64,000 nt of DNA from Roseivirga sp. (lineage in GTDB: Bacteria > Bacteroidota > Bacteroidia > Cytophagales > Amoebophilaceae). Where the stretch lies: NCBI GenBank assembly GCA_051016155.1, contig CP136537.1, forward strand, positions 192,935 through 256,934. Reading direction: 5' to 3'. Shown here one piece after another: positions 8,022-60,238 of the stretch. Positions within the stretch are counted from its first letter, which is position 1, and every line of letters starts with the position of its first letter. The notes beneath the pieces are model-generated. The model was not told the origin of the DNA and made no database searches. It saw only the letters and a program-made list of their open reading frames with translations. The translations under genes were made by a program, and so were the position numbers.

Positions 8022-8030
8022 TGCGCCTCA

Positions 8031-8109: not shown

Positions 8110-8200
8110 AGTCACTGTGTAAGGTGAGTTACTAAAGCGGTTGGATAGGCAGGGATTATCAATAACGCCTCTCTCAAACAGGCCTGCTATCTTAGCTGCC

Positions 8201-9136: not shown

Positions 9137-9230
9137 CTGAGAAACGTATCAGTGAACCATACCGCCACCTAGGCGCTACCAACGATGCTGCTACCAAGGT
9201 TACCGAAGTTTTCGTATCTTGCTATTACTG

Positions 9231-10118: not shown

Positions 10119-10269
10119 GTGCCTCTTTGCTATCTTTGGGTTGGCGCTCTTGCTAGCGAAAAAAGATAGATACCGTCCAAGCAATACAGTCAACTAGGTG
10201 GTGCAGACAGTTGTCATTTATGATGAAGAACATCAATCACCATCCAGTGTGCAGCTGATTAGCTCCCAT

Positions 10270-10350
10270 TTGTCATGCTGAGCGGAAAGCGAAGCCTCCC
10301 TGCAAGGCCCGCTGCGAAGCTCCCCTTCATGTGCGGCTCAGGGTGACAGA
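10270..10350. repeat. palindromic dispersed element (TTGTCATGCTGAGCGGAAAGCGAAGC...GCGGCTCAGGGTGACAGA)
   Basis: Inverted arms gtcatgctgagc / gctcagggtgac. The flank to about 10400 is also shared with 11800-11870. Confidence 0.8.
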
Positions 10351-10595
10351 GACGTAGGAGGTGGTTAAGAATGACCCCGTCCTGCCCTGGATAGGAAGGC
10401 TTAAGGGTCGTCGACAAGTAAAGGTCCAAGCGAGGACACTTGAACCAGTTTTAGTGCATCCGAAACATCGCAGTGTGGTCCACACTATGTTGAGATTCCT
10501 TGCTGCGCTTGGAATGAAAATGCTGCTGCGTAAGGTGAGGAATCCATCCACTCAATAGTGAAAGCCCTAGCAGGCTCAATGCTAATTTTATCTAA

Positions 10596-23164: not shown

Positions 23165-23225
23165 AGTGGATGGTAAGAATATTAAGAAACTCTCCTTACG
23201 CGCTCCCTTCTCAGTACGCCTCATT

Positions 23226-23302
23226 TTGTCATGCTGAGCGCAGCGAAATATCGCTGCGAGGCCCACACCACGTGGAGGTTCCTCGCCAGGCTCGGAATGA
23301 CA
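23226..23302. repeat. palindromic dispersed element (TTGTCATGCTGAGCGCAGCGAAAT...CCTCGCCAGGCTCGGAATGACAA)
   Basis: Inverted arms gtcatgctgagcg / gctcggaatgac. Confidence 0.8.
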
Positions 23303-44463: not shown

Positions 44464-45024
44464 ATGCTTCCTCCCCTCCCACCCCAAGAGCGCATTCTCC
44501 TGGGCATCGATCCAGGTACTACCGTGATGGGCTATGGTATCATTCAGCAAAAACAGCAGCGGCTAAGCGCTGTGCAGTACGGCGTCATCCACTTACATCG
44601 CTATACTACCCATGCCCTGAAGCTGCAGAAAATCTTTGAACGCGTCTTGAGCCTAGTAGATGACTTCCATCCTGATGAAGTAGCCCTAGAAGCCCCTTTT
44701 TACGGTAAGAACGTCCAGTCCATGCTGAAACTGGGCAGGGCCCAGGGAGTGGCTATGGCAGCTGCCCTGGCCCGAGAAGTGCCCATTACAGAGTATGCAC
44801 CACGCAGTATCAAGCAGGCCGTCACCGGGCAAGGCCAGGCTTCCAAAGAGCAAGTAGCCCGCATGCTGGTGTCACTGCTGCAGCTCAAAGCCGTGCCTGA
44901 CTTGCTCGATGCCTCTGATGCCCTGGCCGTCGCTGTCTGTCATGCCTACCAGGGTCGACAAGCCAACGCTAAGCCCACCAGCTGGAAACAGTTTCTACAA
45001 ACACATCCTAGGGTGATCGGGTGA
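44464..45024 (+). CDS. ruvC: crossover junction endodeoxyribonuclease RuvC
   Basis: ILLGIDPGTTVMGYGII, EAPFYGKNVQS, ASDALAVAVCH. Confidence 0.93.
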   Translation: MLPPLPPQERILLGIDPGTTVMGYGIIQQKQQRLSAVQYGVIHLHRYTTHALKLQKIFERVLSLVDDFHPDEVALEAPFYGKNVQSMLKLGRAQGVAMAAALAREVPITEYAPRSIKQAVTGQGQASKEQVARMLVSLLQLKAVPDLLDASDALAVAVCHAYQGRQANAKPTSWKQFLQTHPRVIG

Positions 45025-45032
45025 TTGCCTAA

Positions 45033-45056
45033 CTAGCGCGGAAGTTACTTCCGTAG
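45033..45056 (+). other. cassette-boundary motif CTAGCGCGGAAGTTACTTCCGTAG (contains the perfect palindrome CGGAAGT-T-ACTTCCG)
   Basis: It lies 9 nt after the ruvC stop. Its TAG is the in-frame stop preceding toxin cassette 1. Related copies are at 52746-52769 and the reverse complement of 60282-60305. Confidence 0.7.
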
Positions 45057-45066
45057 TAGGCAAGGG

Positions 45067-45591
45067 GTGTTTAACTTACGACTGCCTGACACTACCCGCC
45101 TTCTGCCGCCGATTACTGGAGAGATGCTCACCAGGGCGTTTAACATGGCCCTAGACCTGACGGTGCCAGGTAGTGAGGGGATTAAGATTCTCTTAGGCAC
45201 AGTAGAGCGCCCAGAGACGCTAGAGCAGTGTGTGGAGGCAGCTTTAAATACAGCTTTGGACTTTATCCCTATGGGGAAGGTCTTCAAGCAAGGCGCTGCA
45301 CTATGTAGTTTCTCGCCGAAGCAGGTCCTTAAACAAAAGCTGCGGGAGCTTCTTAAGAAGAAGGCAGGCAAGCCAGTAAAGGCGGCAGGACAGGTGCTAC
45401 AGTCTGGTGGGAACAAGCTATCGAAGCGTACACTGAAGGCCTTGGGACTGACAAAAGAGCAAGGTAAAGATGCGATACATGCGCTAAAAGATGCTTGTAC
45501 CCTTCCAAACGCTTTTCATGGTCAAATATTGGCCAACGGAAATTATATACACCCTCAAACAAAGCAGGTAATAGATAATTTGTTTAATTAA
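45067..45591 (+). CDS. polymorphic-toxin-like protein, cassette 1 (shared pre-toxin region + variable C-terminal domain, type A)
   Basis: GTG start. LPPITGEMLTRAFNMALDLTVPGSEGIKILLGTVERPETLEQCVEAALNTALDFIPMGKVFKQGAALCSFSPKQVLKQKLRELLKKKAGKPVKAAG is shared with cassettes 2, 2b (part), 3 and 4. The C-terminus GQVLQSGGNKLSKRTLKALGLTKEQGKDAIHALK...FHGQILANGNYIHPQTK is shared only with cassette 4. Confidence 0.7.
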   Translation: MFNLRLPDTTRLLPPITGEMLTRAFNMALDLTVPGSEGIKILLGTVERPETLEQCVEAALNTALDFIPMGKVFKQGAALCSFSPKQVLKQKLRELLKKKAGKPVKAAGQVLQSGGNKLSKRTLKALGLTKEQGKDAIHALKDACTLPNAFHGQILANGNYIHPQTKQVIDNLFN

Positions 45592-45619
45592 GTTAAATAA
45601 ACAGATAGCTTCACCCGTT

Positions 45620-46060
45620 ATGAAAGGAGATTATTATGTTAATAAAACTGAATGTTCATTTGGTTTCACCTCAGAGATAATAACCCCAGAAGAGTTTACA
45701 AAACAGATAGCCATAAAGCCTAGCAGATCTTTTAAAAAGGGCGAAGAATTTATAGTGAAACACTCAGGATCAGTGCTAATACGTCCTTGGCACCTTTGGG
45801 AAATTTCATCATCAGCTGTTATTAATGAGCAAGAATCCATACAACCCCATATTGATTACTTAAAAACAACACTCGCTGATAAAGTAGACATCCTAAAAAA
45901 GTATAAGGAAGATCCAAGCCTGGAGCTTAGTATATGGATATGGATTGAATCAGAGAATGCAGGCATGGGCTTTGACATCAGTGCCGAAGATATGCACTTC
46001 ATGAGTAAAATATGCAATCGCATTAGTTTCAGCCTACTGGCGACGGAAAATATAGAGTAA
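45620..46060 (+). CDS. immunity-like protein, DUF4279-like (cassette 1)
   Basis: 146 aa, AT-rich, starting 29 nt after the toxin stop. The pattern CSFGFTSEIITPEEFTKQIAIKPSRSFKKGE...HLWEISS...QPHIDYLK...LELSIWIW...GFDISAEDMHFMSKI fits my recollection of DUF4279 (PF14106). Confidence 0.65.
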   Translation: MKGDYYVNKTECSFGFTSEIITPEEFTKQIAIKPSRSFKKGEEFIVKHSGSVLIRPWHLWEISSSAVINEQESIQPHIDYLKTTLADKVDILKKYKEDPSLELSIWIWIESENAGMGFDISAEDMHFMSKICNRISFSLLATENIE

Positions 46061-46470
46061 AACCCTCATCAACTAGCGCAAGCAAACCTATAAAGCTGGT
46101 TCAAGCGTCCTCGCTTGGACCGCCAGGCACAGCACAGAGTTCCGTGACAATGGACGCAGCCCAGCGCTATATCAAAAGTCTCTATGCGGCCCCAGTTGGG
46201 AAGAGGCACAGGAGCTGCTGACCGGGGCTTTTAATCTGGCTCTGGACCTGACGGTGCCAGGTAGTGAGGGGATCAAGATTCTCTTAGGCACAGTAGAGCG
46301 CCCAGAGACGCTAGAGCAGTGTGTGGAAGTAGCTTTAAATACAGCTTTGGGCTCTATCTCTATGGGGAAGGTCTTCAAGCAAGGTGCTGCGCTGTGTAGT
46401 TTCTCGCTGAAGCAGGCCCTTAAACAAAAGCTGCGGGAGCTTATTCAGAAGAAGGCAGGCAAGGCAGTAA
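46061..46470 (+). repeat. conserved cassette leader + pre-toxin region, copy A
   Basis: About 90% nt identity (by eye) with 47793-48200. It begins aaccctcatcaACTAGCGCaagcaaacctataaagctg. Confidence 0.85.
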
Positions 46471-46706
46471 AGGCGGCAGGGAAGACGATAAACTTCGGTA
46501 GGATAAAGGTCCCCTCTGAAGTTTTTCACAAACAAATAAAACGGAACATTCTTAAAAGAGCAGGCAACTTTTCCAAAGTGGTTGGCAAGAATCCTGACGT
46601 CAAAATAATTGGCGGTAAAATCAGATTGACTGGAAGAGGCCCTTTTAAGGGCAAAAGCTTCAACACTGATTTAGATGTAACAGACTTCTTCGGAGACTTC
46701 CTATAG
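46077..46706 (+). CDS. orphan polymorphic-toxin module, cassette 2 (no canonical start codon before GTG 46254; C-terminal domain type B)
   Basis: The frame is open from the TAG at 46074-46076: RKQTYKAGSSVLAWTARHSTEFRDNGRSPALYQKSLCGPSWEEAQELLTGAFNLALDLTVPGSEGIK... The variable C-terminus after KAVKAAG is KTINFGRIKVPSEVFHKQIKRNILKRAGNFSKVVGKNPDVKIIGGKIRLTGRGPFKGKSF. Confidence 0.6.
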   Translation, partial: RKQTYKAGSSVLAWTARHSTEFRDNGRSPALYQKSLCGPSWEEAQELLTGAFNLALDLTVPGSEGIKILLGTVERPETLEQCVEVALNTALGSISMGKVFKQGAALCSFSLKQALKQKLRELIQKKAGKAVKAAGKTINFGRIKVPSEVFHKQIKRNILKRAGNFSKVVGKNPDVKIIGGKIRLTGRGPFKGKSFNTDLDVTDFFGDFL

Positions 46707-46708
46707 TA

Positions 46709-47074
46709 ATGAGTAATGGAAAAACGATAATGGAAAAAACAATTTACAGACTTCAAATAAGGTGTTCTACCGATGAACAAGTGAGGAAAGTTTCGAGCAT
46801 ACTCAACAGAGAGCCTGCAGAGCCAATGGGGAATACATGGCTCGAAGTTGAAGAAAAAAAGGGGGATGAGTACTTTGATTTTATAAATCAATTTTTAGAT
46901 ATCCTCGAAGGAAAGTATGAGCAATTACAGTCTGTCGGGGTGCATAGAGAAGACATCAGCGTATGGTTTTTGTACCAGTATGAGGATCAATGTAATATGG
47001 AGTTCTTACCAAGTGATCTAAAGAGATTAGGGACTAACCGAATCAGCCTCTGTATTTCTTGCTGGGCGTCTTAA
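46709..47074 (+). CDS. immunity-like protein (cassette 2), distant DUF4279-like architecture
   Basis: It starts 3 nt after the toxin stop, is 121 aa and AT-rich. ...DFINQFLDILEGKYEQLQSVGV..ISVWFLY...LKRLGTNRISLCISCW. Confidence 0.55.
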   Translation: MSNGKTIMEKTIYRLQIRCSTDEQVRKVSSILNREPAEPMGNTWLEVEEKKGDEYFDFINQFLDILEGKYEQLQSVGVHREDISVWFLYQYEDQCNMEFLPSDLKRLGTNRISLCISCWAS

Positions 47075-47146
47075 CTAACTATCTCAATTGGCGTAGATGT
47101 TTTTCGTTTGGGCCACAGTCTCCCGGCTGGCGCGGGTACAGAGTTC

Positions 47147-47550
47147 CCCATGGGGCAGATCTTCAAGTAAGGTGCTGCGCCGTGGAGTTTTTCCCCGAAG
47201 CAGGTCCTTAAACAAAAGCTGCGGGAGCTTCTTAAGAAGAAGACAGGCAAGGCAGTAAAGGCGGCTAGGAGTTCTTTAAAGACAATTATAAAAGGCAAAA
47301 ATCTACCTACGAGTGGGAAGATACGCTTTATCCCACGCAAGCCAGATATTCAATCAGGGCAGCTACTATCCAAAGACGGTGGTTTTATAGACAAATTTGG
47401 GAATGTGTGGAGGAGAGGCCTAAAGGTAATATTATTGGAGAACCACACTGGGATGTACAGCTATCTCCTACTGGCAAAAGACAGTTGGGGCACATGTCAA
47501 GAAGTGGTACACATATCAATGTGACTTTGGATGGACGGATCGCACACTGA
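47147..47550 (+). pseudogene. degenerate toxin module, cassette 2b (keeps only the last ~120 nt of the shared region; premature TAA and a frameshift; C-terminal domain type C)
   Basis: PMGQIFK*GAAPWSFSPKQVLKQKLRELLKKKTGKAVKAA then RSSLKTIIKGKNLPTSGKIRFIPRKPD...DKFGNVW. After a frameshift it reads EPHWDVQLSPTGKRQLGHMSRSGTHINVTLDGRIAH*. TAA replaces the CAA seen in the other copies. Confidence 0.6.
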
Positions 47551-47569
47551 AGAAACCTTGTCAATAAGT

Positions 47570-47791
47570 ATGAACTTACCTGAACTTTTTTGTGCTAAGA
47601 ATACAGTTCTTAAACTCAGAAAAAAAATTAACATAGTTGTAAACGAAAGTTCTGTAGTTCTTGAGCCAGGCACTCTTTTTCAAGTTAAAAATATTGTAGG
47701 ATATGGTTTTGATCTGATCTCTTTAGACACTAATCGCTATAAAATTAGGGTCATAAACTCAGATATGCCTCTGTATTTTAATAATCCTTAA
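47570..47791 (+). CDS. immunity-like small protein (cassette 2b)
   Basis: MNLPELFCAKNTVLKLRKKINIVVNESSVVLEPGTLFQVKNIVGYGFDLISLDTNRYKIRVINSDMPLYFNNP. AT-rich, starting 20 nt after the degenerate toxin end. Confidence 0.5.
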   Translation: MNLPELFCAKNTVLKLRKKINIVVNESSVVLEPGTLFQVKNIVGYGFDLISLDTNRYKIRVINSDMPLYFNNP

Positions 47792-47792
47792 A

Positions 47793-48200
47793 ATATTTCG
47801 CCAACTAGCGCAAGCAGGCCTATAAGGCTGATTCAAGCATTCTCGCTTGGACCGCCAGGCACAGCACAGAGTTCTGTGACAATGGACGCAGTCCAGCGCT
47901 ATATCAAAAGTCTCTATGCAGCCCCAGTTGGGAAGAGGCCCAGGAGCTGCTGATCAGAGCTTTTAACCTGGCTCTGGACCTGACGGTGCCAGGTAGTGAG
48001 GGGATCAAGATTCTCTTAGGCACAGCAGAGCGCCCAGAGACGCTAGAGCAGTGTGTGGAAGCAGCTTTAAATACAGCTTTGGACTTTATCCCCATGGGGA
48101 AGGTCTTCAAGCAAGGCGCTGCACTATGTGGTTTCTCCCTGAAGCAGGTCCTTAAACAAAAGCTGCGGGAGATTATTAAAAAGAAGGCCGACAAGGCGGT
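47793..48200 (+). repeat. conserved cassette leader + pre-toxin region, copy B
   Basis: tatttcgccaACTAGCGCaagcaggcctataaggctg..., aligning along its whole length with 46061-46470. Confidence 0.85.
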
Positions 48201-48465
48201 AAAGGGGGCTAATAGGGCAGAACACCAAGCTACTTTACCTCGTTCCGGGCTTATTCTGCAGACTGTTGGCGCAGCTTCTCGCTCTGAGATGTTCGCACGC
48301 CAACTAAATCTAAAAATAAATAATTTACCTACTAGGCAAGTGCTAAATAGCTCAGATGATACAGTGGAGGTTTTTGTGAGCAGGTTTAGGAAGTCTTCTA
48401 TTAGATCTCAATTGCCGGGTGAGTTTCTGAATATGACCTTAGAAGAAGCAATAATAAGACTGTGA
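47809..48465 (+). CDS. orphan polymorphic-toxin module, cassette 3 (no canonical start before GTG 47986; C-terminal domain type D)
   Basis: The frame is open from the TAG at 47806-47808, with the same 177-nt offset to the GTG as in cassette 2. The variable C-terminus after KAVKGA is NRAEHQATLPRSGLILQTVGAASRSEMFARQLNLKINNLPTRQVL...IRSQLPGEFLNMTLEEAIIRL. Confidence 0.6.
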   Translation, partial: RKQAYKADSSILAWTARHSTEFCDNGRSPALYQKSLCSPSWEEAQELLIRAFNLALDLTVPGSEGIKILLGTAERPETLEQCVEAALNTALDFIPMGKVFKQGAALCGFSLKQVLKQKLREIIKKKADKAVKGANRAEHQATLPRSGLILQTVGAASRSEMFARQLNLKINNLPTRQVLNSSDDTVEVFVSRFRKSSIRSQLPGEFLNMTLEEAIIRL

Positions 48466-48496
48466 GAAAACTATTGATTAACCAAAGATTCGTCAA

Positions 48497-48814
48497 GTGA
48501 TAGACAAAGACAAAACGATAATTGATTTTCTGCAGAAGGTACGTAGTAAACCAGACTTTGCTACTGTTGAAATAGTAGATTATTGGGACGGAGATTTGTG
48601 TGCCACAGGACTGAGAAAGAATGATCGGCTAGTTTATATCTCTACTTATGGATTCTGTAAGCAAAATATTAGAGATGACTCAGAAACAGAATATGACTGT
48701 GATTTCGAGATGTTAGACAAAAAAAACCTTGCCACTTTACGAGTGGTAAAAGAAATAAAAACAAAAGATAAAGAGTATTTATTTAAAGAAATAAAGAGGT
48801 TTTTAGGAGTTTAA
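48497..48814 (+). CDS. immunity-like protein (cassette 3)
   Basis: 105 aa, GTG start, AT-rich. ...FATVEIVDYWDGDLCATGLRKNDRLVYISTYGF... Not DUF4279-like. Confidence 0.5.
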   Translation: MIDKDKTIIDFLQKVRSKPDFATVEIVDYWDGDLCATGLRKNDRLVYISTYGFCKQNIRDDSETEYDCDFEMLDKKNLATLRVVKEIKTKDKEYLFKEIKRFLGV

Positions 48815-48976
48815 TATAGCCTTACTGTGAGCAGTTGCTGATTACGTCTAGCTATAAGTATTAATGGTGCTTAGGTTAGCGGCATTGGGATCCATATCAT
48901 ACAGCATACTTGGCCAAGCCAGGAGGCGGCAGCGCTCCAGAGGCTGACCCAAGATATTCAAAAAGCTACGACCTCT

Positions 48977-49510
48977 TTGACGGAGCTTTGCGACGCAGCT
49001 GGCTTGGCAATGCCCGACCTTACCAGTCCTCTGCCACCGATTACTGGAGAGATGTTGACCAGGGCTTTTAACCAGGTGCTCGACAGTACGGTCCCGGGCA
49101 GTGCATTGATCAAAGTCATGCTGGGTACGGCAGAGAGTCCGCAAACGATAGAGCAATGCCTACATTTGGCTTTGGATGTAGCGCTAGATTTGCTGCCTGG
49201 CGGCAAGCTCACGAAGCTATCGAAGAGCCCTTCTGTCAAGCTCGGATTGGCCAAGATGAAGAAGCTCTTGGGCAAGAAGGCCATGAAGAAGGCGACAGGA
49301 CAGGTGCTACAGTCTGGTGGGCATACGCTATCGAAGCGTACACTGAAGGCTCTGGGATTGACAAAGGGCCAGGGTAACGAAGCTATCCATATGCTGAAAC
49401 GCAACCGTAAGCTTCCTAATAATTTTCATGGTCAAATATTAGCTAATGGGGATTATATACATCCTCAAACCAAAGAATTACTAGGTAATATATTCGATTA
49501 CGTGAGATAA
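48977..49510 (+). CDS. polymorphic-toxin-like protein, cassette 4 (diverged pre-toxin region; C-terminal domain type A')
   Basis: TTG start, but the frame is open from 48875 (…QHTWPSQEAAALQRLTQDIQKATTSL...), suggesting a fragment of a longer gene. The C-terminus GQVLQSGGHTLSKRTLKALGLTKGQGNEAIHMLK..FHGQILANGDYIHPQTK parallels cassette 1. Confidence 0.65.
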   Translation: MTELCDAAGLAMPDLTSPLPPITGEMLTRAFNQVLDSTVPGSALIKVMLGTAESPQTIEQCLHLALDVALDLLPGGKLTKLSKSPSVKLGLAKMKKLLGKKAMKKATGQVLQSGGHTLSKRTLKALGLTKGQGNEAIHMLKRNRKLPNNFHGQILANGDYIHPQTKELLGNIFDYVR

Positions 49511-49522
49511 GTTCTATTAACT

Positions 49523-49963
49523 ATGGCAAATGCTTACTACATCAATAAAACTGATTGTTCGTTTGGTATTAGTTCAACTACGCTATCTCCAGAAGAGATT
49601 TCAAAACAACTAAAGCTTACACCAAGCAGATCGTTTATAAAAGGAGAAAAGTACAAATCCAAGCATTCGGGCTCAATAATTACAAATCTCTGGCACCTTT
49701 GGGAAATTTCATCATCAACTGTTATTAATGAGCAAGAGTCCATACAACCACACATTAATTACTTGAAAACAACACTCGCTGATAAAGTAGACATTCTAAA
49801 ACAGTATAAGGAAAATTTAAGCCTGGAGCTTAGTATATGGATATGGATTGAATCAGAGAATGCAGGTATGGGCTTTGACATCAGTGCCGAAGACATGCAC
49901 TTCATGAGTAAAATATGCAATCGCATCAGTTTCAGCCTACTGGCGACAGAAAATATAGAGTAA
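49523..49963 (+). CDS. immunity-like protein, DUF4279-like (cassette 4)
   Basis: 146 aa. The C-terminal ~88 aa are about 93% identical to ORF 45620-46060, while the N-terminal ~58 aa are only about half identical. Confidence 0.65.
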   Translation: MANAYYINKTDCSFGISSTTLSPEEISKQLKLTPSRSFIKGEKYKSKHSGSIITNLWHLWEISSSTVINEQESIQPHINYLKTTLADKVDILKQYKENLSLELSIWIWIESENAGMGFDISAEDMHFMSKICNRISFSLLATENIE

Positions 49964-50130
49964 AACCCTCATCAACTAGCGCAAGCAAGCCTATAAGGCT
50001 GATTCAAGCGTCCTCGCTTGGACCGCCAATAGCCTCCCTACCACTGCACAGAGTTCTGTGACAATGACGCAGCCCAGCGCTATATCAAAAGTCTCTATGC
50101 GGCCCCAGTTGGGAAGAGGCACATGCCAGG
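49963..50130 (+). repeat. truncated cassette leader, copy C (no toxin body follows)
   Basis: aaaccctcatcaACTAGCGCaagcaagcctataaggctgattcaagcgtcctcgcttggaccgcc...gacaatgacgcagcccagcgctatatcaaaagtctctatgcggccccagttgggaagaggcaca, then unrelated sequence. Confidence 0.8.
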
Positions 50131-50184
50131 GGTACTGCGCTAGGGAGGAGTGACCAGGTAACTTGAGAAATATGTACAGTAAAA

Positions 50185-50619
50185 ATGGAAGTAGAATACG
50201 TCAAGTCATACTGTGAACTAAGAATAGCCTCGCAAGCTTTCTCTCTAGAACAAATTACAAAAGAGTTAGGGCTTACGCCTGATTTCTCCTTTTGTAGTAC
50301 TGATAGCGCCAGATCAAGTCAACAAGAAGAAACGAAGCACAATCTATGGATGATTGTCTCTCCAACTATCATCTCTGAAGAAAGAGACATAACACCACAC
50401 ATCAGCTATATGAGATCGAAATTAAAGAGTAAGAGAAATATACTTTTGAAATACAAAAAAGATCAGAGACTCGAGCTTATTTTCACAGTGCGGATTGAAA
50501 CTGAAGATATAGTTTCAGGATTCAGTTTGAGTAGGGAAGATGTACTCTTTATCAATTCAATCTGTAATCGCTGTGAGCATTTTTATACTTGTAAAGGGGA
50601 TGTCATAACTAAAAAGTAG
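50185..50619 (+). CDS. immunity-like protein, DUF4279-like (immunity-only module, first gene)
   Basis: CELRIASQAFSLEQITKELGLTPDFSF...HNLWMIVS...TPHISYMRSKL...LELIFTVRIE..GFSLSREDVLFINSICNR. Confidence 0.6.
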   Translation: MEVEYVKSYCELRIASQAFSLEQITKELGLTPDFSFCSTDSARSSQQEETKHNLWMIVSPTIISEERDITPHISYMRSKLKSKRNILLKYKKDQRLELIFTVRIETEDIVSGFSLSREDVLFINSICNRCEHFYTCKGDVITKK

Positions 50620-50676
50620 TGCTAAGCTTAAGTGTGGCTTTACACTAAAGAACAAAAAAGCATAAGAGATAATAGG

Positions 50677-51141
50677 ATGTTAAGTGGCTGTATCATCGAT
50701 GAACTAAACTGTGAATTCTCCATTACCTCGCGTATTGTAGCTCCAGAAGAGATCACGAAGCAGCTGGCCGTACAACCAAGTAGGTGTTTTACCAAAGGCG
50801 ATACTTTTCTATCTGAGCACTCAGGCTTGCTAGTTGTACGCCCCTATCATCTTTGGGCTATCACCTCAACAGATGTAATAGAGGATAAAGAAGACCTACG
50901 ACCACACATTGATTACTTAAAATCTAAACTCAGTCAAAAGGACACTATATTGAAGCAGTATAGGGAGGATCATCGGCTTGAGCTTGTTTTCAGTATATGG
51001 ATCAAGGTATTAGGAGAATCTTTAAGTTTTATCTTAGGTGAGCATGAGCTTGCTTTTATTGGCACAATTTGCAACCGATGCGACTATTTTTTTCTTGCCA
51101 AGGAAACAAATGTAGCTAACGACAACGTAGCTCAACATTAG
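50677..51141 (+). CDS. immunity-like protein, DUF4279-like (immunity-only module, second gene)
   Basis: MLSGCIIDELNCEFSITSRIVAPEEITKQLAVQPSRCFTKGD...HLWAITS...RPHIDYLKSKL...LELVFSIWIK. Internal ATG chosen; the ORF track start is GTG 50632. Confidence 0.6.
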   Translation: MLSGCIIDELNCEFSITSRIVAPEEITKQLAVQPSRCFTKGDTFLSEHSGLLVVRPYHLWAITSTDVIEDKEDLRPHIDYLKSKLSQKDTILKQYREDHRLELVFSIWIKVLGESLSFILGEHELAFIGTICNRCDYFFLAKETNVANDNVAQH

Positions 51142-51157
51142 TAAGCCCCGGCTGGCG

Positions 51158-51172
51158 CGGAACTAAGTTCCG
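51158..51172. other. perfect palindrome CGGAACT-A-AGTTCCG at a cassette boundary
   Basis: Read directly, 17 nt after the stop of ORF 50632-51141, within ccccggctggcgcggaactaagttccgtgacc (compare 47115-47145). Confidence 0.6.
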
Positions 51173-51183
51173 TGACCAGTGAG

Positions 51184-51310
51184 GCAAGCCTATAAAGCTG
51201 ATTCAAGCGTCCTCGCTTGGACCGCCAGGCACAGCACAGAGTTCTGTGACAATGACGCAGCCCAGCGCTATATCAAAAGTCTCTATGCGGCCCCAGTTGG
51301 GAAGAGGCAC
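51184..51310 (+). repeat. cassette leader, copy D
   Basis: gcaagcctataaagctgattcaagcgtcctcgcttggaccgccaggcacagcacagagttctgtgacaatgacgcagcccagcgctatatcaaaagtctctatgcggccccagttgggaagaggcaca. It carries the same 1-nt deletion (gacaatgacgc) as copy C. Confidence 0.85.
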
Positions 51311-51468
51311 ATGCCAGGAGTCTTGCGCCAGGTGGGGAGGTTCTCCGAAAAGCAGGCATTACCAATCCCAATATTTGCGTAGACAGTGCAGGCAATATTG
51401 TCCTGACACATCCTGTCACTAAACAACCTATTCCCACTGGGATACCTTTGTCTGAACTTGCTAAGTAA
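51256..51468 (+). pseudogene. short start-less toxin remnant, cassette 6
   Basis: The frame containing SWEEA continues as HARSLAPGGEVLRKAGITNPNICVDSAGNIVLTHPVTKQPIPTGIPLSELAK*. There is no ATG or GTG in frame, and the upstream in-frame stop is TGA at 51253-51255. The ORF-track ORF 51179-51382 is the neighbouring frame. Confidence 0.45.
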
Positions 51469-51513
51469 GCGTTATGCCTGTCACCAAAGCCTTTGCTGCC
51501 TGTGTTTTACTAG

Positions 51514-52328
51514 ACAGTGTCGTCAGGAGAGTCCTAGCCATAAAGCTAGACATCTGATTTGAATAGCGGCCAGAAATGAGCTCCTTCTCTTTGCATAGCG
51601 CGTACATATCCCGCGCCAACGCTTCAGATACAAAAACGTGTTCTCTATCACATGACGTAGTTGATACACTTCTCGGTTGTAACTGCGCGCTACTTTTCTA
51701 TGCTTCCTACTCGGTATTACACATTGTCTATTCTTTGATTTCACCTCTTTGACTACTTGCTCTGTGTCATAGCCCCTATCTGCTATCACTCCCCCTGCAG
51801 GCAAGTCTTTGAGCAGCTCAACACCTTGCTTACAATCTGCTTCGGTACCTGCTGTAATAATGGCTCTGAGCGGCATACCAGACGCATCCACGGCCAAATG
51901 TAGTTTTGTATTGAGCCCCCTTTTGTGCGATTCATCGCCTCATTTCCGCCCACTGCCCCCGTCCCATGGGGATGCACTTTTATATGACTCGCATCGATCA
52001 TCAGCCACGTGTAGTCTGGTTCATCTGACAGTAATTCCAAAAGCTTCTCCCATGTTCGATTATCGCGCCATCGACAAAAGCGTCGGTTCGTATTATTCCA
52101 CTCGCCGTAATGAGGAGGCAAGTCTCGCCATGGGGCTCCCGTTCGTAAGATCCAGAACACGGCGTTAATAAATTTTCTATTGTCTTTAGCTACCCCTCCC
52201 CAAGCGCCAGCTCTTCCAGGCAAATGAGGGGCAAGTTTGTTCCATACTTCATCGGAGATATCGTGTCGTTGATAGGCAGGTTGTTTCAGCATTTTTTGCC
52301 TTAAGATAATATCTTATGTCGACACTGC
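51514..52328 (-). mobile_element. IS5-family insertion sequence (two-ORF, frameshift type), 815 bp, flanked by a CTAG target-site duplication
   Basis: Terminal inverted repeats acagtgtcg (51514-) and cgacactgc (-52328). CTAG is at 51510-51513 and 52329-52332. Removing the IS and one CTAG restores a continuous ORF. Confidence 0.85.
51523..52292 (-). CDS. IS5-family transposase, orfA (51786-52292) and orfB (51523-51897) joined by a -1 frameshift
   Basis: orfA ...FINAVFWILRTGAPWRDLPPHYGEWNNTNRRFCRWR...MIDASHIKVHPHGTG...NRTKGG. In the -1 frame, at the A-AAA-GGG-GG run, it continues LNTKLHLAVDASGMPLRAIITAGTEADC...ADRGYD...RHVIENTFLYLKRWRGICTRYAK. Confidence 0.85.
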
Positions 52329-52332
52329 CTAG

Positions 52333-52739
52333 GAGATGATTTTAGTCCTAAGAAGTTGAGTAAGATAACTGGTTTGAAGTCTGAAGATCCTGTAGAAAAA
52401 GGAGATATTGATGTTCGAGGTCATGAGTGGACCTATGGTGGGGCAATCATTAATCACGCTTCCCATATTAACCAAGAAGGAGAGCATATAGATTTATCCA
52501 CCATGCTCCAGGTGTTACTAGACCATCAAGAGCACTTGAAGACTTGTCAAGTAGAGCGTATCTACTTGACGCTCAACTTCTTTCACACCTCTGACATCTC
52601 AGCATGGCACCTAGACCATGCAGACCTCAAAAAGATTGTAGCGCTGGGCGAATTCTTGGGCTTTGATATTGGTCTGTCGCTGGATTGGTACCAGATGGAT
52701 GGGGAGGAAGAAGAGAGTGAAGCTAAAGAGGACGAATAA
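52333..52739 (+). pseudogene. DUF4279-like immunity gene, 3' part, disrupted by the IS (5' part at 51474-51513)
   Basis: The 5' part atgcctgtcaccaaagcctttgctgcctgtgttttactag joins ga gat gat ttt... to give MPVTKAFAACVLLGDDFSPKKLSKITGLKSEDPVEKGD... The frame was verified codon by codon across the junction. Confidence 0.75.
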
Positions 52740-52745
52740 CCTCAC

Positions 52746-52769
52746 CTAGCGTGAAAGTAACTCCCGTGC
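52746..52769 (+). other. cassette-boundary motif CTAGCGTGAAAGTAACTCCCGTGC (distal end of the array)
   Basis: It starts 7 nt after the stop of the last immunity gene. About 19/24 positions match 45033-45056 and about 21/24 match the reverse complement of 60282-60305. Confidence 0.65.
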
Positions 52770-52943
52770 CAAAGAGCAATACCATACGCCATGGCCAACC
52801 ACTTTGGACTTATAGAGAATAACCGCTAATTTCGGCCCCACAAGCTTGGTTATTAGGAAATCATAGCGCAAACATTAAGTAGTACACGGGTGAACCCCAG
52901 CATATAGTTTATATTAAGGAATCAGGCAGCTATAAAACACATC

Positions 52944-55245: not shown

Positions 55246-55965
55246 TTACTCGTCTTCCCACCAAAGATTGGTAACGTAGTACTTGATCATACTTGCATCT
55301 CCATAGTCGCGTCTGGTTCGTATCTGCAAGTAATAGTCAAAAGTACTTCCAGCCCACCTGAGGTCAAGCTTGTTTCGGTAGCTGCCATAATGCGCTTCCG
55401 TTTTTCTGATGGTATTGCTTGAGTTGCCGAATGCACTCAGTGCAATGGCGTGTATGATCGAGTACAAGCCTCTGCCTGGCTTACCAATCTGGGCCACGAC
55501 TTCAAATGCATGACAGTGACTTAGCTGAGGAGTTATGTTGTGCCATTCTTTGTTGCCAGGGACTTCTCCAGAGGCATACAGCCCTCTGCGGCCCTGCATG
55601 TGAATATTGCCAGCAACCTCCAGCTTGGCCGTAGGGTTGATGGTGCCAATGCCCACGTTCCCATCTTCTTTGATAAACAGCCGACTCTCTCCTCCTTGAT
55701 CCACCAGGTTCAAGCCAAAATCAGGGGTATCTTTAGGATATTGTTCAATGCCCCACTTAGGCTTAAGATCACTCAGGCTATTGAAAAAGGTGACCATCTT
55801 CTTGGCACTCCCTTTGGGGGATAGCTTGAGCCCCTCCTCCTGAGAAATGAGCCCATCGTCTTGTTTGTGATACAGAGAATCAACCAAGTCCTCAAAATCT
55901 TGCTGCGAAGGAATAGCTCCTTTTTCAAAGGCTTTTTTGAGCTGATTTCTGCTAACTATCGCCAT
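55246..55965 (-). CDS. tail-fibre/receptor-binding-like protein of a contractile injection system
   Basis: N-terminal L.KAFEKGAIPSQQDFEDLVDSL motif and DGNVGIGTINPTAKLEVAGNIHM, both typical (from memory) of short fibre proteins in eCIS and phage loci. Its start overlaps the upstream baseplate gene by 14 nt. Confidence 0.55.
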   Translation of the reverse strand: MAIVSRNQLKKAFEKGAIPSQQDFEDLVDSLYHKQDDGLISQEEGLKLSPKGSAKKMVTFFNSLSDLKPKWGIEQYPKDTPDFGLNLVDQGGESRLFIKEDGNVGIGTINPTAKLEVAGNIHMQGRRGLYASGEVPGNKEWHNITPQLSHCHAFEVVAQIGKPGRGLYSIIHAIALSAFGNSSNTIRKTEAHYGSYRNKLDLRWAGSTFDYYLQIRTRRDYGDASMIKYYVTNLWWEDE

Positions 55966-58900
55966 GGGGGGTACGCTTCTTAATATTTTTCTTGGTTACT
56001 AGGTAATACTCTTCTAGGCTTTCCTGTAAGACCTCTTGCTTGGCCTCAGCTGCCCAGTCTTTGCTTTTTCCTTCTTGCCAAGGCCCTACAATAAAATCTT
56101 CTCCAACGCGCATCTCATCCACGCCTCCACGGCGAAGGCCTAGGCGCGCACGAATTTTATCTAGCACAGAGATTTTATGCTTGTTGGCTGAAACCATTAC
56201 CGACCATGGATAGGTAGCCTTTAGATAGTTATCATAATCGGTGATTTTAGTAATGGTCATCCTAGCTCCTTGCCCTGTGTACTTCAATATGGAGAAGTTG
56301 CCTATGCCCTCTACGTATTCCTTTTTATTGATAAAGTCGATAATTTTCGAAGAGGGCATGATACCACCTAGCTTCACATCTTCTGCTTCGTCGAACAGCC
56401 AAGGGGAAAGAAAATTCCTAATTTCCTTCTGTAGTTTGTTCAAATATATGCCCTTTTCGTAGGTTGGCCTAAACTTTACCTCTATGTTCACTTTGACCTC
56501 TTCGTACATGGGATTCATGACCTCGAATTCGACAAAAGGCGATGATACACTTTGCAGGTAACGCTCAATTTCTCGTAACAGCTGTTTGGTCACTCTTGGC
56601 GTGAACTCACTCTCCTCGTTGCTGCTTTGTAGTCTATTGATCACCACCATCATGACTCTGCCTGGATAGGGGGCCCAAGGCTTGGCCTTGCTAGAGTGGT
56701 TAATGCATTTGACTCTAAAAATTTCAGGAAACTTTTCTAGAACAAGTCTTTCATAGTCCCAAGCAGAAATAGCCCTATTCTTGTGCCGAAGCCGCTCGCT
56801 GATTCTGGTATAAAACTGATCACTGTTTTCTGCTGGCTTGCCGCCAAAAGAGGCAAAAGGCTGTAATACTGCTTTTATTTCTTTAGGGTCTCCCCATACA
56901 TTTTGTAGGCTGCCCGGACGTAATGTATTGGGTAGTTCAGCTGTTCGGTCTTTGTCAATGACCCTAGAGGCCATGGCGACCTGGGTGCGGATGCTCACAA
57001 GCGTGGGGAGCGCCTCCATCGCCTCAAAGAATACCGCTCTGACCCAAATCAGCCCTGGACTGAACAGCGTATTGTCTTGATTGGCCGCTGGGGGAATGCT
57101 CAGCACGATGATGCCAGCCTTGGTCAGTCCATCGGTCCCATCTGAGATAATCTCGTCATCCTCAAAGTTGATCCAATCGTTGTGAGATAAATATTGCCAC
57201 GCGGGCCTGGGAAACGCTTTGTCTGGATCGATGCTCTTTTCATCAATCTGGAGGTGCACAGAGAGAAAGGAAGCCGTCAGTTGTTCAAAACCAAAGCAAA
57301 AAAAGCAGCCTACACTTTCGGCACCAGACAAAAAAGTTACAGGACCAGTTTTATTCGGAAACACCTTCTTGTGGCCAAAAGGAGCCAGTCGTATTAAGGT
57401 CTGAGGAGGCTGCTCCTCTTCTTCCGTACGGCTTGTGAAGAAAATCTCTTCTCTGGCACTATAGTCTACAGACAAGGATTTGATGACAGGGGTGTAGGGT
57501 TCATTAAGGGGCGGAGGCGAGGCAGGTCCTTTGTTTTTACTGTTTTTGCTGCTAGCACGCTGGATAAAAGATTGACCCATGAGCGTAGGATATAGGCTAT
57601 GGCCAAATGCCATCTTAGGGCCAACGAGCTCTAGCCTGAGAAAGCCTGCCAATGTCTTAGGAGTGAGCGTAGACGCTGTGAGCTTATGCTCAGTGACTGC
57701 TAGGTTGAGTCTATCAAGATCGATCTCATTAATGCTGCGTTTACGCTGTAATTTTTGTGTACCATACCTCCCCCCTTCTTCTTCGGTAGTAAAGAGCGGT
57801 ACTCTTTGCCTGTTTTCGGCGTATAGAGGATACCACTGTCGATGATTCAGGTAGGAGACGCTTACCTCAAAGTCTTCATTAGTTACCTGCTGAGGATAGC
57901 CTTGGTAGTGACTGGTCCACCCGCCCTCCACAGTAGGTAAGTTGTCCCATTCTATATTAATGCTCAAGCTTTTGAGGTCTTTGTAAAAGAGTTCATCACT
58001 GCCCAAATAGAAGTTAGCGTGCAGCTGTGGAAATGGTCCAAAAGGTTGGAACGGAAGACTGGTATCTATCAGCCCTGAATCGTTTTGTAGCGTAAGGTCT
58101 TTGTAGTCTGTTACAACTACCTCTAAGGCCAGCTTGTTAAGCACCAAATCTTTGAATAAATAAATATGGCCAAAGTGAGTCGGGTCATTAAGGCCTAACC
58201 TGATCGCCGGGGCCTGAATATCATACGTTCCTTCATGCACGGCAGGATCAAAGTTGACCACCGGGGGCATGTCAGGCGGCAGTGAAAGCAAGAACTCAAT
58301 ACAATCTTCCTCTTCAAGACTAATAACAATGGTGATATTTGTTGGAGGCAGATACATCCATGACGCTTCTGAAGTGAGATAGATATCAATTGCTTCTTTG
58401 AATAGGACAATCATCTTGTCCTGTATGCCCCCTAGGTCTTCTTCCTTGCTTTGTCTGATTCTTTCTAATAGGGTCTCGAAGGAGGGCTTACTGAACTTAA
58501 ACTTGAGTTTGACCTCTCTATTGCCTTCTTTGAGATAGAAAATAGGAGAAGCCACCACGAGCCCTAAAAAGTGCCGATTCACCTCTTGTTGATGCGTGTT
58601 GTCTTGTTGGGGAGTAGCGCTAGGTGCCGGTTGGTCAATGATCTCCTCGTTGTAAGTAGTAGCACTGATGCTACCTACTGGCAAAAAGCCCTCTTGGGTG
58701 GGTTCCTCTACTATCTGCTGCACTCTGTGCACCTTGCTAACGACGCCATGGTTAAGCATGATCGCGCTGTGGGTCTTGAAGATAATATCGTGTCCCTCCT
58801 TGTCCTTGCCTGCCAAAACCTTGACGCCTGGAGGAAGAAAGTAGCGGATTACCCATGGCTGTACTTGGAACTGTACCACCACTTGGTCTGCCTGTACAGG

Positions 58901-59773
58901 CAGCGGCCTGAACTTCAGCACTTCTTTGTAATAGAAGTCAAGGTGCCGCTGAGGAATCTTATTGAGCCGTTCAGTAGCATGCTGCAGTAACCGTAAAAAA
59001 GCAATGAGCAGCGCAGTTTGAGGCTGATGTTGTTGGCTTTGGAGCGTGTCAGCATAGCCAGCGCGGGCCAGTGCTTGGATGTTCTGGAGTGAACTTAGCA
59101 GGATATCGAGCAGCTCCTTCAGGGTGCTCATCGTGCTTTGTACAACGGTGCTTCCGACAGCGCTTTCATAAGCAGTGGTAGCCTTTAGCTCCCAAGGGGC
59201 GCCCCTTTCAGTGAGGTCCTCTACAAAATCACAAAAATCAAGAAGCGTTGCTGAGGGCGTCTGACTGTTCCACTGGTGCAGCACATTATAGAGAAACGTG
59301 AGGCGGTCATTCAGCTCGCGTCTGACAAGGATATGCAACTCTCCTTGGACTTTACTATCAGTAGATAAATTCTCGTACCAATAATCAATGAGCAGTAAAA
59401 GCTCTTCTAATAGGCGAAGCAGGCGTTGGATATGCTTGTTTTCGTCGCTGATGACCTTTTCTTTCTCCAAGAGCAGAAAGTCATTATTGATCAGGGGCCT
59501 GAGTCGAGCAATCTCTGTATGGATAATGAGGGAGTATATGACTGTATCGTCATTTTCTAGAAATTTGCGCCATGCATTGTGTTTGACTGCTGTGTTTTGG
59601 CTCCCGTAATATTGAATAAGGTCACTGTACAAATAGACGAAGAGGACGTACTCATCCAAGGTCCTTTCGTCAATCAAGGCATTGTTGTTCAGCAAATTTT
59701 TAGGCAGTCTCTCTACCTGGCAGGTACCATCTCTTTCAAAGAGTAGGTGACTTTTGCTTGTGTGTGTGCTCAT
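55952..59773 (-). CDS. large baseplate wedge protein, baseplate-J (gp6/gp47; Afp11/Afp12-like)
   Basis: 1273 aa. The C-terminal region RLRHKNRAISAWDYERLVLEKFPEIFRVKCINHS resembles the RAVTxxDYExL signature of the Baseplate_J family. It is followed by the fibre-like gene. Confidence 0.55.
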   Translation of the reverse strand: MSTHTSKSHLLFERDGTCQVERLPKNLLNNNALIDERTLDEYVLFVYLYSDLIQYYGSQNTAVKHNAWRKFLENDDTVIYSLIIHTEIARLRPLINNDFLLLEKEKVISDENKHIQRLLRLLEELLLLIDYWYENLSTDSKVQGELHILVRRELNDRLTFLYNVLHQWNSQTPSATLLDFCDFVEDLTERGAPWELKATTAYESAVGSTVVQSTMSTLKELLDILLSSLQNIQALARAGYADTLQSQQHQPQTALLIAFLRLLQHATERLNKIPQRHLDFYYKEVLKFRPLPVQADQVVVQFQVQPWVIRYFLPPGVKVLAGKDKEGHDIIFKTHSAIMLNHGVVSKVHRVQQIVEEPTQEGFLPVGSISATTYNEEIIDQPAPSATPQQDNTHQQEVNRHFLGLVVASPIFYLKEGNREVKLKFKFSKPSFETLLERIRQSKEEDLGGIQDKMIVLFKEAIDIYLTSEASWMYLPPTNITIVISLEEEDCIEFLLSLPPDMPPVVNFDPAVHEGTYDIQAPAIRLGLNDPTHFGHIYLFKDLVLNKLALEVVVTDYKDLTLQNDSGLIDTSLPFQPFGPFPQLHANFYLGSDELFYKDLKSLSINIEWDNLPTVEGGWTSHYQGYPQQVTNEDFEVSVSYLNHRQWYPLYAENRQRVPLFTTEEEGGRYGTQKLQRKRSINEIDLDRLNLAVTEHKLTASTLTPKTLAGFLRLELVGPKMAFGHSLYPTLMGQSFIQRASSKNSKNKGPASPPPLNEPYTPVIKSLSVDYSAREEIFFTSRTEEEEQPPQTLIRLAPFGHKKVFPNKTGPVTFLSGAESVGCFFCFGFEQLTASFLSVHLQIDEKSIDPDKAFPRPAWQYLSHNDWINFEDDEIISDGTDGLTKAGIIVLSIPPAANQDNTLFSPGLIWVRAVFFEAMEALPTLVSIRTQVAMASRVIDKDRTAELPNTLRPGSLQNVWGDPKEIKAVLQPFASFGGKPAENSDQFYTRISERLRHKNRAISAWDYERLVLEKFPEIFRVKCINHSSKAKPWAPYPGRVMMVVINRLQSSNEESEFTPRVTKQLLREIERYLQSVSSPFVEFEVMNPMYEEVKVNIEVKFRPTYEKGIYLNKLQKEIRNFLSPWLFDEAEDVKLGGIMPSSKIIDFINKKEYVEGIGNFSILKYTGQGARMTITKITDYDNYLKATYPWSVMVSANKHKISVLDKIRARLGLRRGGVDEMRVGEDFIVGPWQEGKSKDWAAEAKQEVLQESLEEYYLVTKKNIKKRTPHGDS

Positions 59774-59976
59774 GTGCTGGGAAAATAGGTACGCAGAAGC
59801 CTAAACACTGGTCCCTCAAAATTTACATATTACTACTTTTACACAAGCTCTCTTCGAACGCCTCTTTGTCATGTTGAACCTCTTTTATAACCTGATCGCC
59901 TCCTTATTTTTAAAATGTTTCTGGAAGTATTTTTAGGGTTTCGAAAAAGGCTCATTGAGCAGAGCGACACATCGTT

Positions 59977-60012
59977 GTGGAGCCCGTTACGCTGCGGTTC
60001 GGAATGACAATA
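59977..60012. repeat. half-copy of the palindromic element (…GCTGCGGTTCGGAATGACAAT)
   Basis: Matches the right arm of 8031-8109 and 23226-23302. Confidence 0.6.
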
Positions 60013-60238
60013 CTGCTCCGCAAATTCAAAAAGACTAGAAGAGCGATAAAAGAAGACTTTGAATCCCTTAAAATTAAAATATTTTCGACACTTTGGGAAA
60101 CTTTTAGGGGCTATATCGTTAAGCGATATTGGATCGCAGCACGTCGTTTTGATCACTTACTTTTATGGCTCAACATGCGGACATTATTGAGTATCTCGTC
60201 CTAAAAAAGTTTATACATTCCCTATATCCCCATTGGGG

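Follow-up and report, generated by a model that had tools for sequence, protein, structure and literature searches.

A window of 64,000 nt from a metagenome-assembled genome (MAG) labelled Roseivirga sp. (assembly GCA_051016155.1, contig CP136537.1, positions 192,935–256,934; all coordinates below are those of the window) carries, at 45031–52739 on the forward strand and directly 3′ of ruvC, seven consecutive modules of toxin-gene pieces and small downstream genes. The modules very probably form an array of displaced, orphan 3′ fragments of toxin genes with their cognate immunity genes, belonging to a polymorphic toxin system and kept mainly as an immunity repertoire. An earlier sequence-only reading of the window had proposed an orphan C-terminal toxin/immunity array, and that proposal is borne out by full-length parent genes in relatives, by a metagenomic locus (L002) in which a parent is followed by such an array, and by toxin/immunity pairs that recur between loci.

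Translation of the three forward frames of 44900–52900, together with the list of open reading frames (ORFs), revealed a coding region of ~100 residues, termed here the pre-toxin domain, in five of the seven modules. A tblastn search of the whole window with the copy from the first module (T1) returned five copies and no others, all on the forward strand: T1 (45103–45390, E=5e-61), T3 (47944–48213, E=4e-49), T2 (46212–46448, E=5e-41), T4 (49031–49300, E=4e-21) and a partial copy in T2b (47144–47266, E=5e-16). Repeat finding and DNA alignment agree with this picture. The sequence-only reading had attributed the shared region to all seven modules; this holds for five, whereas cassettes 5 and 6 have only a linker of ~165 nt in common with the others. 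Sliding nucleotide identity reaches 87–98% between modules 1 and 2 over 45128–45390 and 80–98% between modules 2 and 3 over 46061–46480, and in both pairs it drops at once to ~35% past the junction AGKxVKAAG, so that aligning the cassettes places the breakpoints right behind this motif, where the abrupt change to unrelated C-termini had been noticed earlier. The constant region has a GC content of 0.52–0.54, and the C-termini and the small downstream ORFs (I1 to I6) have 0.32–0.40, a difference in keeping with cassettes of foreign origin; these ORFs, described before as visibly AT-richer, start between an overlap and 28 nt past the toxin pieces. The C-termini in the window comprise types A/A′ (T1 and T4), B (T2), C, which is Pfam Ntox17 (T2b), and D (T3), as distinguished previously, and to these a fifth, type E, is added by the tail surviving in cassette 6.

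The substitution pattern of the repeats is that of genes. Nei–Gojobori dN/dS is 0.29–0.40 among the pre-toxin copies of T1, T2 and T3 and 0.15–0.19 when these are compared with T4; it is 0.20 for the pair of type-A C-termini and 0.23 for I1 and I4. Values of 0.15–0.40 indicate that the repeats evolved as protein-coding DNA. In addition, 48142–49848 recurs at 100% identity in a separate Logan contig, assembled from run SRR25441019, making the order T3–I3–T4–I4 independent of any single assembly.

The shared region had been said to resemble none of the familiar pre-toxin junctions, and family searches are in keeping with this: Pfam and NCBIfam contain no match to the shared region, nor to C-terminal types A, B and D or to I2, I2b, I3 and I6, and the full-length parents lack VENN, RHS, LXG and MafB-N, while T2b was identified as Ntox17. 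Scanned in full with HMMER, 1.84 billion representative proteins yielded 28 with the pre-toxin domain, and the homologues come from at least eight unrelated metagenomes. The domain lies near the C-terminus both in giant proteins (residues 1918–2010 of 2135 in P0005 and 1821–1916 of 1989 in P0007) and in shorter members (674–752 of 835 in P0014 and 742–813 of 908 in P0028), with comparable placement throughout the 613–908-residue proteins P0012, P0014, P0015, P0019, P0023 and P0028. Behind it, most long members have a further 60–120 residues of unrelated sequence, and across the family at least ten different C-termini are joined to the one domain. These include all the types of the window, namely A (P0007), B (P0020), Ntox17 (P0009), D (P0014 and P0022) and E (P0028), as well as Ntox21 (P0010 and P0024), Ntox33 (an orphan in L002) and several more. 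This position and this variety of C-termini identify the shared region as a genuine pre-toxin domain in a family of polymorphic toxins. When each Genome Taxonomy Database (GTDB) species was represented by one genome, scanning yielded a further full-length member, 1851 residues long and ending in a type-D C-terminus, from Candidatus Amoebophilus sp. 36-38, the single match from a named organism. Scans of genome contigs, a collection that apparently does not include the source MAG, and of metagenome contigs gave one locus each, in both cases this same Amoebophilus gene.

The full-length parents, found in relatives only, are 1851–2135 residues long (P0005, P0007 and the Amoebophilus protein of locus L005). 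They begin with a signal peptide closing in a lipobox (L-x-S-C; for example, LLFSHSLMSC or FSHTLTSC), which marks the full-length homologues as Sec-exported lipoproteins. A small β-rich domain follows in two copies, ending in GYVYIG, and then a Cys4 motif (CxxC…CxxC). The middle of the protein, ~850 residues consisting to 45–55% of E, K, R, Q and D, is presumably a coiled coil, to judge from its composition; it is succeeded by a hydrophobic segment of 35–60 residues, by ~100–200 residues that are up to 79% charged, and by ~300 helical residues. The end is made up of the helical pre-toxin domain of ~100 residues, with the motifs FNxxLDxxVPGSxLIK…LGT…P…LDFLPGGK and a Lys-rich helix, and of a variable toxin domain of 60–120 residues. 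An AlphaFold2 model of T1, built from an alignment of 23 sequences (mean pLDDT 69.6), shows the pre-toxin domain as a helical bundle, the Lys-rich linker as disordered and the type-A C-terminus as a small α+β fold; a Foldseek search with it against the Protein Data Bank (PDB) gave nothing with E<1. Residues 1–85 of the parent N-domain were modelled as a β-rich fold with a pLDDT of ~90 and had no PDB match by Foldseek, and no significant match came out of PDB profile searches with types A/E, with type D or with the pre-toxin domain. In Pfam and NCBIfam, the three longest members had no match whatsoever, and among 11 full-length or long relatives and the parts of the window the exceptions were Ntox17, DUF4279 and Ntox21. 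The pre-toxin domain and its scaffold of ~2,000 residues, with lipobox, coiled coil and hydrophobic segment, are thus without a Pfam, NCBIfam or PDB counterpart.

Several members depart from this plan. Four short proteins (P0012, P0013, P0019 and P0023; 211–791 residues; L009, 749–3124) keep the pre-toxin domain followed by a short Lys-rich tail and no toxin, and in P0012, P0019 and P0023 the lipobox and N-domain are retained as well; the family gene of L009 has no immunity gene behind it. In view of these toxin-less members, the pre-toxin domain may have a function of its own. P0014 (L008, from Logan run SRR23272284, gene 8001–10508) is a family member lacking a lipobox signal, and the other ORFs of its contig are numerous short pieces of a DNA polymerase of family B that has a zf-C4pol domain, as though split by introns; this could mean that the gene was transferred to the genome of a eukaryotic host, or that the contig is chimeric.

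Loci in relatives supply both the genetic order and the pairing expected of parents and their cassettes. In L002 (GC 0.335), the 1989-residue parent P0007 is followed 12 nt downstream by a DUF4279 gene and then by three orphan modules, with a fragment at the end. The pre-toxin repeat of the first orphan is 88% identical to that of the parent; the orphan C-termini are an unnamed type, Ntox33 and a frameshifted Ntox17, and their small downstream ORFs are WapI-like, a DUF4279 gene and a homologue of I2b. DUF4279 appears in a published list of immunity families as FdL-Imm5 (PMC9424270). Four pairings of the window recur elsewhere: type A with DUF4279 (I1 and I4) in L002 at 36–41% identity, where I1 is 36% identical to the gene directly 3′ of the parent; type D with the I3 family in L005 at 36% identity, where the I3 homologue follows the type-D parent with a 4-nt overlap; Ntox17 with the I2b family in L002 at 38% identity; and type E with the I6 family in L007 at 52% over 33 residues. 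Set against the definition of polymorphic toxins (Zhang et al. 2012), alternative C-termini on a constant region number five in the window and at least ten in the family, a co-varying downstream immunity gene accompanies the A, D, Ntox17 and E pairs, and a full-length exported gene with 5′-truncated cassettes is present in L002, the window holding cassettes only. In both L002 and L007, which are from unrelated metagenomes, the parent gene stands just 3′ of a relA/SpoT-type (HD_4) gene (8528–9823 and 2–187, respectively). The relA gene of the window (33809–36028) is ~9 kb from the array, beyond tig–clpP–clpX, so that this position is not conserved.

Within the array, all features lie on the forward strand unless stated otherwise. 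The first module opens behind ruvC (44464–45024; Pfam RuvC, E=6e-47) with a junction (45031–45066) made of a 9-mer, AACTAGCGC, and a palindrome, CGGAAGTTACTTCCG. T1 (45067–45591; NCBI protein ROO73_00975) is an apparently intact, 5′-truncated orphan with a GTG start, the pre-toxin domain occupying 45070–45390 and the type-A C-terminus 45391–45588. It is followed by I1 (45620–46060), a DUF4279 (FdL-Imm5) immunity gene for type A that scores 41 bits in Pfam. T2 (46077–46706) comprises the pre-toxin domain at ~46212–46481 and the type-B C-terminus at 46482–46703, and 2 nt past its stop codon lies I2 (46709–47074; 121 residues, low GC), the putative type-B immunity gene by its position. Of the pre-toxin domain, T2b (47144–47550) retains only the last ~40 residues; it is interrupted by an in-frame TAA, and its C-terminus shifts frame between 47419 and 47440, the two halves matching positions 6–51 (33.7 bits) and 62–98 (36.6 bits) of Ntox17 (PF15524; cut-off 25) in different frames, which identifies it as a pseudogene, the intact homologue being P0009. 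Its partner I2b (47531–47791) is 38% identical to the ORF behind the Ntox17 orphan of L002. T3 (47809–48500), with a type-D C-terminus, is frameshifted near 48448, where, compared with the C-terminus of the Amoebophilus sp. 36-38 parent, ~10 nt are deleted; the called ORF ends at 48465 and the conserved final 16 residues are stripped off. The restored tail, NNKTVRKLLINQRFVK, runs in another frame and ends at 48500, its stop codon overlapping the start codon of I3 (48497–48814), the gene paired with type D and 36% identical to the ORF directly 3′ of the L005 parent.

T4 (48875–49510) combines a divergent pre-toxin domain with a type-A′ C-terminus and is likewise 5′-truncated; from an in-frame ATG at 49010 it encodes 166 residues, on record as P0002. 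Upstream of this ATG, the open frame 48917–49009 encodes LQRLTQDIQKATTSLTELCDAAGLAMPDLT, which aligns with LESLEKSMKNTQANLEQLCEAFNLDKPDLT of the parents (E down to 4e-7), in the stretch just before their pre-toxin domain, and the impression that this extra frame reads like coding sequence is thereby substantiated. At T1, similarly, the N-terminal FNLRLPDTT aligns with FNLDKPDLT of a parent. Parent homology upstream of the starts shows that T4 and T1 are both 5′-truncated gene fragments rather than standalone small genes. As to start codons, which the sequence-only reading found largely missing, T1 has a GTG and T4 its ATG, and for T2 and T3 the NCBI annotation begins at GTG codons in frame, 46254 for T2 (P0004) and 47986 for T3 (P0003).

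Behind T4, three DUF4279 genes stand in a run: I4 (49523–49963; 44 bits), I5a (50185–50619; 38.6 bits) and I5b (50632–51141; 45.5 bits; likely start, by alignment, ATG 50677). All of them, like I1, exceed the gathering score of 25 for PF14106. The 3′ halves of I1 and I4 and the linkers that follow are 90–98% identical by sliding identity, which suggests recent gene conversion. I5a and I5b have no toxin, that of cassette 5 (49964–50150) having been deleted so that a linker copy alone remains. In cassette 6 (51142–51468) a linker copy is fused to the last ~43 residues of a type-E domain (60% identity over 43 residues to the C-terminus of P0028, E=4e-15; stop codon 51466–51468). The type-E immunity gene I6 is split after codon ~13 into a 5′ fragment (51474–51513) and a 3′ fragment (52333–52739; 52% identity over 33 residues to the downstream ORF in L007, E=3e-6), the latter including a 127-residue ORF at 52356–52739; once restored, the N-terminus of I6 reads MPVTKAFAACVLLGDDFSPKKLSKITGLK and is matched by the ORF behind the P0028 gene of L007. 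The inserted element (51514–52332, reverse strand) is an IS5-family insertion sequence (IS) of 819 bp with a two-ORF, frameshifted transposase (Pfam DUF4096 and DDE_Tnp_1), 21-nt terminal inverted repeats (51510–51530 and 52312–52332) and a CTAG target duplication.

Taken over the whole array, three of the seven toxin pieces are apparently intact (T1, T2 and T4), two are frameshifted (T2b and T3) and two deleted (cassettes 5 and 6), and every one lacks the export and scaffold part. The immunity genes are intact in seven cases out of eight, the run of I4, I5a and I5b included, and the eighth is the IS-split I6.

The modules are joined by four copies in all of the ~165-nt linker, which also precedes T2 and T3. 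The first (46061–46226) is open in frame with T2, is 90–100% identical to the other copies and corresponds to repeat families D4–D6; the second (47792–47958) was delimited by repeat finding and sliding identity; the third and fourth are those of cassettes 5 and 6, the former delimited by repeats and alignment. The 9-mer recurs at four module starts (45031, 46071, 47803 and 49974), with five copies observed in the window against 0.6 expected, and a 15-nt palindrome (CGGAAGTTACTTCCG / CGGAACTAAGTTCCG) marks the starts of cassettes 1 (45039–45053) and 6 (51158–51172). The 9-mer and the palindrome may be recombination or processing sites. Each linker contains a hairpin, GGTTCAAGCG-TCCT-CGCTTGGACC, at 46095–46120 and at the equivalent places in the three other copies, ~30 nt past the immunity stop codons. 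A structured RNA or an integron attC-like site was considered for the linker and rejected, there being no Rfam match and the fold z-scores (−2.8, −2.3, −1.5 and 0.0) being inconsistent across copies. Read in a shifted frame, the linker bears a weak resemblance over 16 residues to parent sequence (E=0.32). Promoter and terminator signals were counted at chance level in a scan whose models do not extend to Bacteroidota-type promoters.

Where the parent of these fragments might be was asked of several collections. In the window itself none was found by tblastn with the T1 shared region, only the five cassette copies, in agreement with the earlier statement that no full-length delivery gene is present there. 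A word-indexed profile search of 5.8 billion protein clusters with the pre-toxin domain returned only four proteins, all from the window (including ROO73_00975, 00985 and 00995), which implies that no other annotated protein of the source MAG has a pre-toxin domain of close similarity. Queried with alignments of the parent N-terminus, the same tool gave one hit and then none, missing P0005, P0007, P0019 and P0023 although these were rows of the query and members of the collection; its negatives in this low-complexity family thus do not amount to absence, and these two results have no bearing on a parent in the source genome. No further source-MAG protein with the domain emerged from either that search or the HMMER scan, protein databases being collections from which pseudogenes are left out. 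A parent encoded by this genome would be expected to share 80% identity or more in the pre-toxin domain. To judge from these searches and from the 64 kb of the window, it is likely to be absent from the source genome.

Some considerations weigh against reading the array as displaced fragments kept for immunity. The window covers 64 kb of a 1.45-Mb contig, and a parent may possibly lie elsewhere, be annotated as a pseudogene or be more divergent. T1, T2 and T4 have possible starts and intact frames, which would permit some expression. Types A, B and D and genes I2, I2b and I3 are candidate toxins and immunity genes by their position, architecture and co-conservation, and matched no known family or fold; a toxin annotation at the family level is available only for Ntox17, Ntox21 and Ntox33. 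The family consists of ~28 metagenomic proteins, all singletons, and the export route of the parent is predicted from its N-terminal sequence. The first two of these points lead to the strongest competing explanation, an active switching reservoir whose cassettes still recombine with an intact parent elsewhere in the genome, so that the array would be a working part and not a relic. This would account for the frames of T1, T2 and T4, intact over pre-toxin domain and C-terminus, and for the 85–98% nucleotide identity among the pre-toxin copies of T1–T3, as if these were maintained for recombination or by gene conversion. It is nonetheless rather unlikely, since no other source-MAG protein with a similar domain was recovered by the word-indexed search or by HMMER, four of the seven toxin pieces are broken or deleted as against seven of eight immunity genes intact, and the array stands directly behind ruvC, whereas that of L002 stands directly behind its parent.

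The remaining alternatives are less probable still. That T1–I1, T4–I4 and perhaps T2–I2 are self-standing toxin–antitoxin-like modules acting inside the producer, in addiction or abortive infection, would fit their in-frame GTG or ATG starts, the intact ORFs of 166–174 residues, the close toxin–immunity spacing and a dN/dS below 1; it is made improbable by parent homology that begins upstream of the starts, by the fact that the first ~100 residues are elsewhere always internal to giant exported proteins, by promoter and terminator signals that do not rise above chance and by the decay of adjoining modules. The sequence-only reading had offered, as a hypothesis, that a contractile injection system (CIS) of the same genome carries the small proteins as cargo or as tips, on account of CIS genes in the window (a tape measure at 145–3117 and a Baseplate_J-like gene at 55952–59773, 3.2 kb past the array). 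This hypothesis fares poorly and is now very improbable: full-length proteins place the domain behind a Sec/lipobox signal and ~1,800 residues of scaffold, the sequence upstream of the T1 and T4 starts marks these as gene fragments, no CIS gene flanks the family gene in five contigs of relatives (L002, L003, L005, L007 and L009), and dut and a 326-residue ORF without a Pfam match separate the array from the baseplate gene. Housekeeping genes set the CIS genes apart: the Pfam-matched ORFs between tape measure and baseplate gene are all housekeeping genes or mobile elements, among them topA, asd, ligA, dapA, relA, tig, clpP, clpX, ruvC and dut, with several further ORFs unmatched. Finally, because the sequence derives from a MAG and repeats of 300–400 nt at 90–98% identity invite mis-assembly, the modules might be an assembly artefact, or else a non-coding repeat family. 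Both are next to negligible in view of the identical Logan contig, the coding-type substitutions, the protein homologues in at least eight unrelated metagenomes, and the Ntox17 and DUF4279 matches above gathering cut-offs.

The window's own CIS genes are more than 50 kb apart, the tape measure (PF19268; 145–3117) on the forward strand and the 1273-residue Baseplate_J-like protein (55952–59773) on the reverse strand, the latter flanked by ORFs 55246–55965 and 59869–60156, neither of which has a Pfam match. Together they look like a split, dispersed CIS set.

Under the favoured interpretation, as displaced toxin-gene ends with their immunity genes, the array would have arisen by analogy with CdiA, Rhs and MafB: the conserved pre-toxin sequence would allow new toxin/immunity cassettes to enter the parent gene at its 3′ end by recombination, and each incoming cassette would shift the earlier tip and its immunity gene downstream. 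The parent itself, as its N-terminus predicts, would be exported by Sec and held by a lipid anchor at the cell surface, and would not be loaded into a contractile injection system. The locus would then guard against toxins of types A to E from related cells. By itself it would be no active weapon; its main role would be that of an immunity repertoire that has been retained, perhaps along with that of a reservoir for recombination, and selection would now preserve immunity rather than attack. As such it is a clean case of toxins decaying while immunity stays, and it supplies three candidate toxin domains (A, B and D) and three candidate immunity families (I2, I2b and I3), all uncharacterised and each with a clear cognate partner.

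On a wider scale, it is conceivable, if somewhat short of probable, that the family represents an undescribed class of polymorphic-toxin delivery confined to Amoebophilus-like Cytophagales, in which a giant lipid-anchored coiled-coil stalk on a scale of ~100 nm is combined with a hydrophobic hairpin, a new pre-toxin domain and cassette displacement with immunity. If so, the view of 2012, in which the lipobox effectors of this lineage act in parallel against the host and without immunity, would have to be revised in favour of conflict between bacteria, for example co-infecting symbionts, mediated by contact in a way that has no relation to the type V, VI and VII secretion systems (T5SS, T6SS and T7SS) and to Rhs. 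Should the scaffold deliver toxins between cells, it would add a contact-dependent route to those of Bacteroidota and hint at kin competition among intracellular or host-associated Cytophagales. The window also contains, amid housekeeping genes, an ankyrin-repeat protein (22340–23266, reverse strand), an IS with an rve-type integrase (25323–26411, forward strand) and the IS5-type element in I6 (51514–52332, reverse strand). The ankyrin protein, the IS elements and the Amoebophilus-like relatives of the toxins are hints of a host-associated lifestyle of this MAG.

Among known systems, MafB/MafI of Neisseria is close in design: the toxin is Sec-exported, a conserved N-terminal part is joined to a variable C-terminal toxin, the immunity gene is directly 3′, and promoterless, 5′-truncated C-terminus/immunity cassettes are arrayed behind the parent gene. 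The parents described here differ from MafB in being about four times larger, in an unrelated pre-toxin domain, in having no match to MafB-N (DUF1020) in the Pfam search, and in their lipobox, long charged coiled-coil-like region and hydrophobic segment. The orphan CdiA-CT/CdiI and Rhs-CT/RhsI modules resemble those of the window in keeping a stretch of constant region, which serves as homology for recombination, an abrupt junction and a cognate immunity gene. In contrast to CdiA, the parents have no TPS or FHA domain in Pfam or NCBIfam and no VENN in the alignment, and no cdiB is present in the L002, L003 and L005 loci; in contrast to Rhs, RHS/YD repeats are absent from the parents in the same databases, and the junction is a Lys-rich helix, KKAGKxVKAAG, instead of PxxxxDPxGL. 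Toxin domains such as Ntox17 and Ntox21 are shared by this family with the CdiA and Rhs systems (PMC3482391).

The APD1 and APD2 effectors of Amoebophilus asiaticus have lipobox-linked conserved N-terminal domains with polymorphic C-termini, and are described as deployed in parallel against the host, with no serial cassette displacement and typically without immunity genes (PMC3482391). Compared by description only, they are like the parents in the signal peptide with lipobox, in a lineage-specific conserved N-domain and in lineage, one parent being from Candidatus Amoebophilus sp. 36-38, and on that basis a relationship is plausible; unlike them, the present family has true cassette arrays and immunity genes. 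Lipoprotein-based polymorphic toxins with adjoining immunity genes are also found in Myxococcus, where the SitA proteins of the SitA/SitI system are lipobox-anchored and carry C-terminal toxin domains. These proteins are small and depend for their transfer on outer-membrane exchange through TraA, and no homology between them and the present family was detected. The acquired interbacterial defence clusters of Bacteroidales, which are orphan immunity islands, hold intact immunity genes in runs without working toxins, much as in the run I4–I5a–I5b; here they are embedded in what is left of a toxin cassette array, not in a dedicated, mobile, recombinase-associated island. Orphan toxin/immunity arrays are thus a familiar design, and the novelty of this one lies in its carrier, the pre-toxin domain and the scaffold that bears it.

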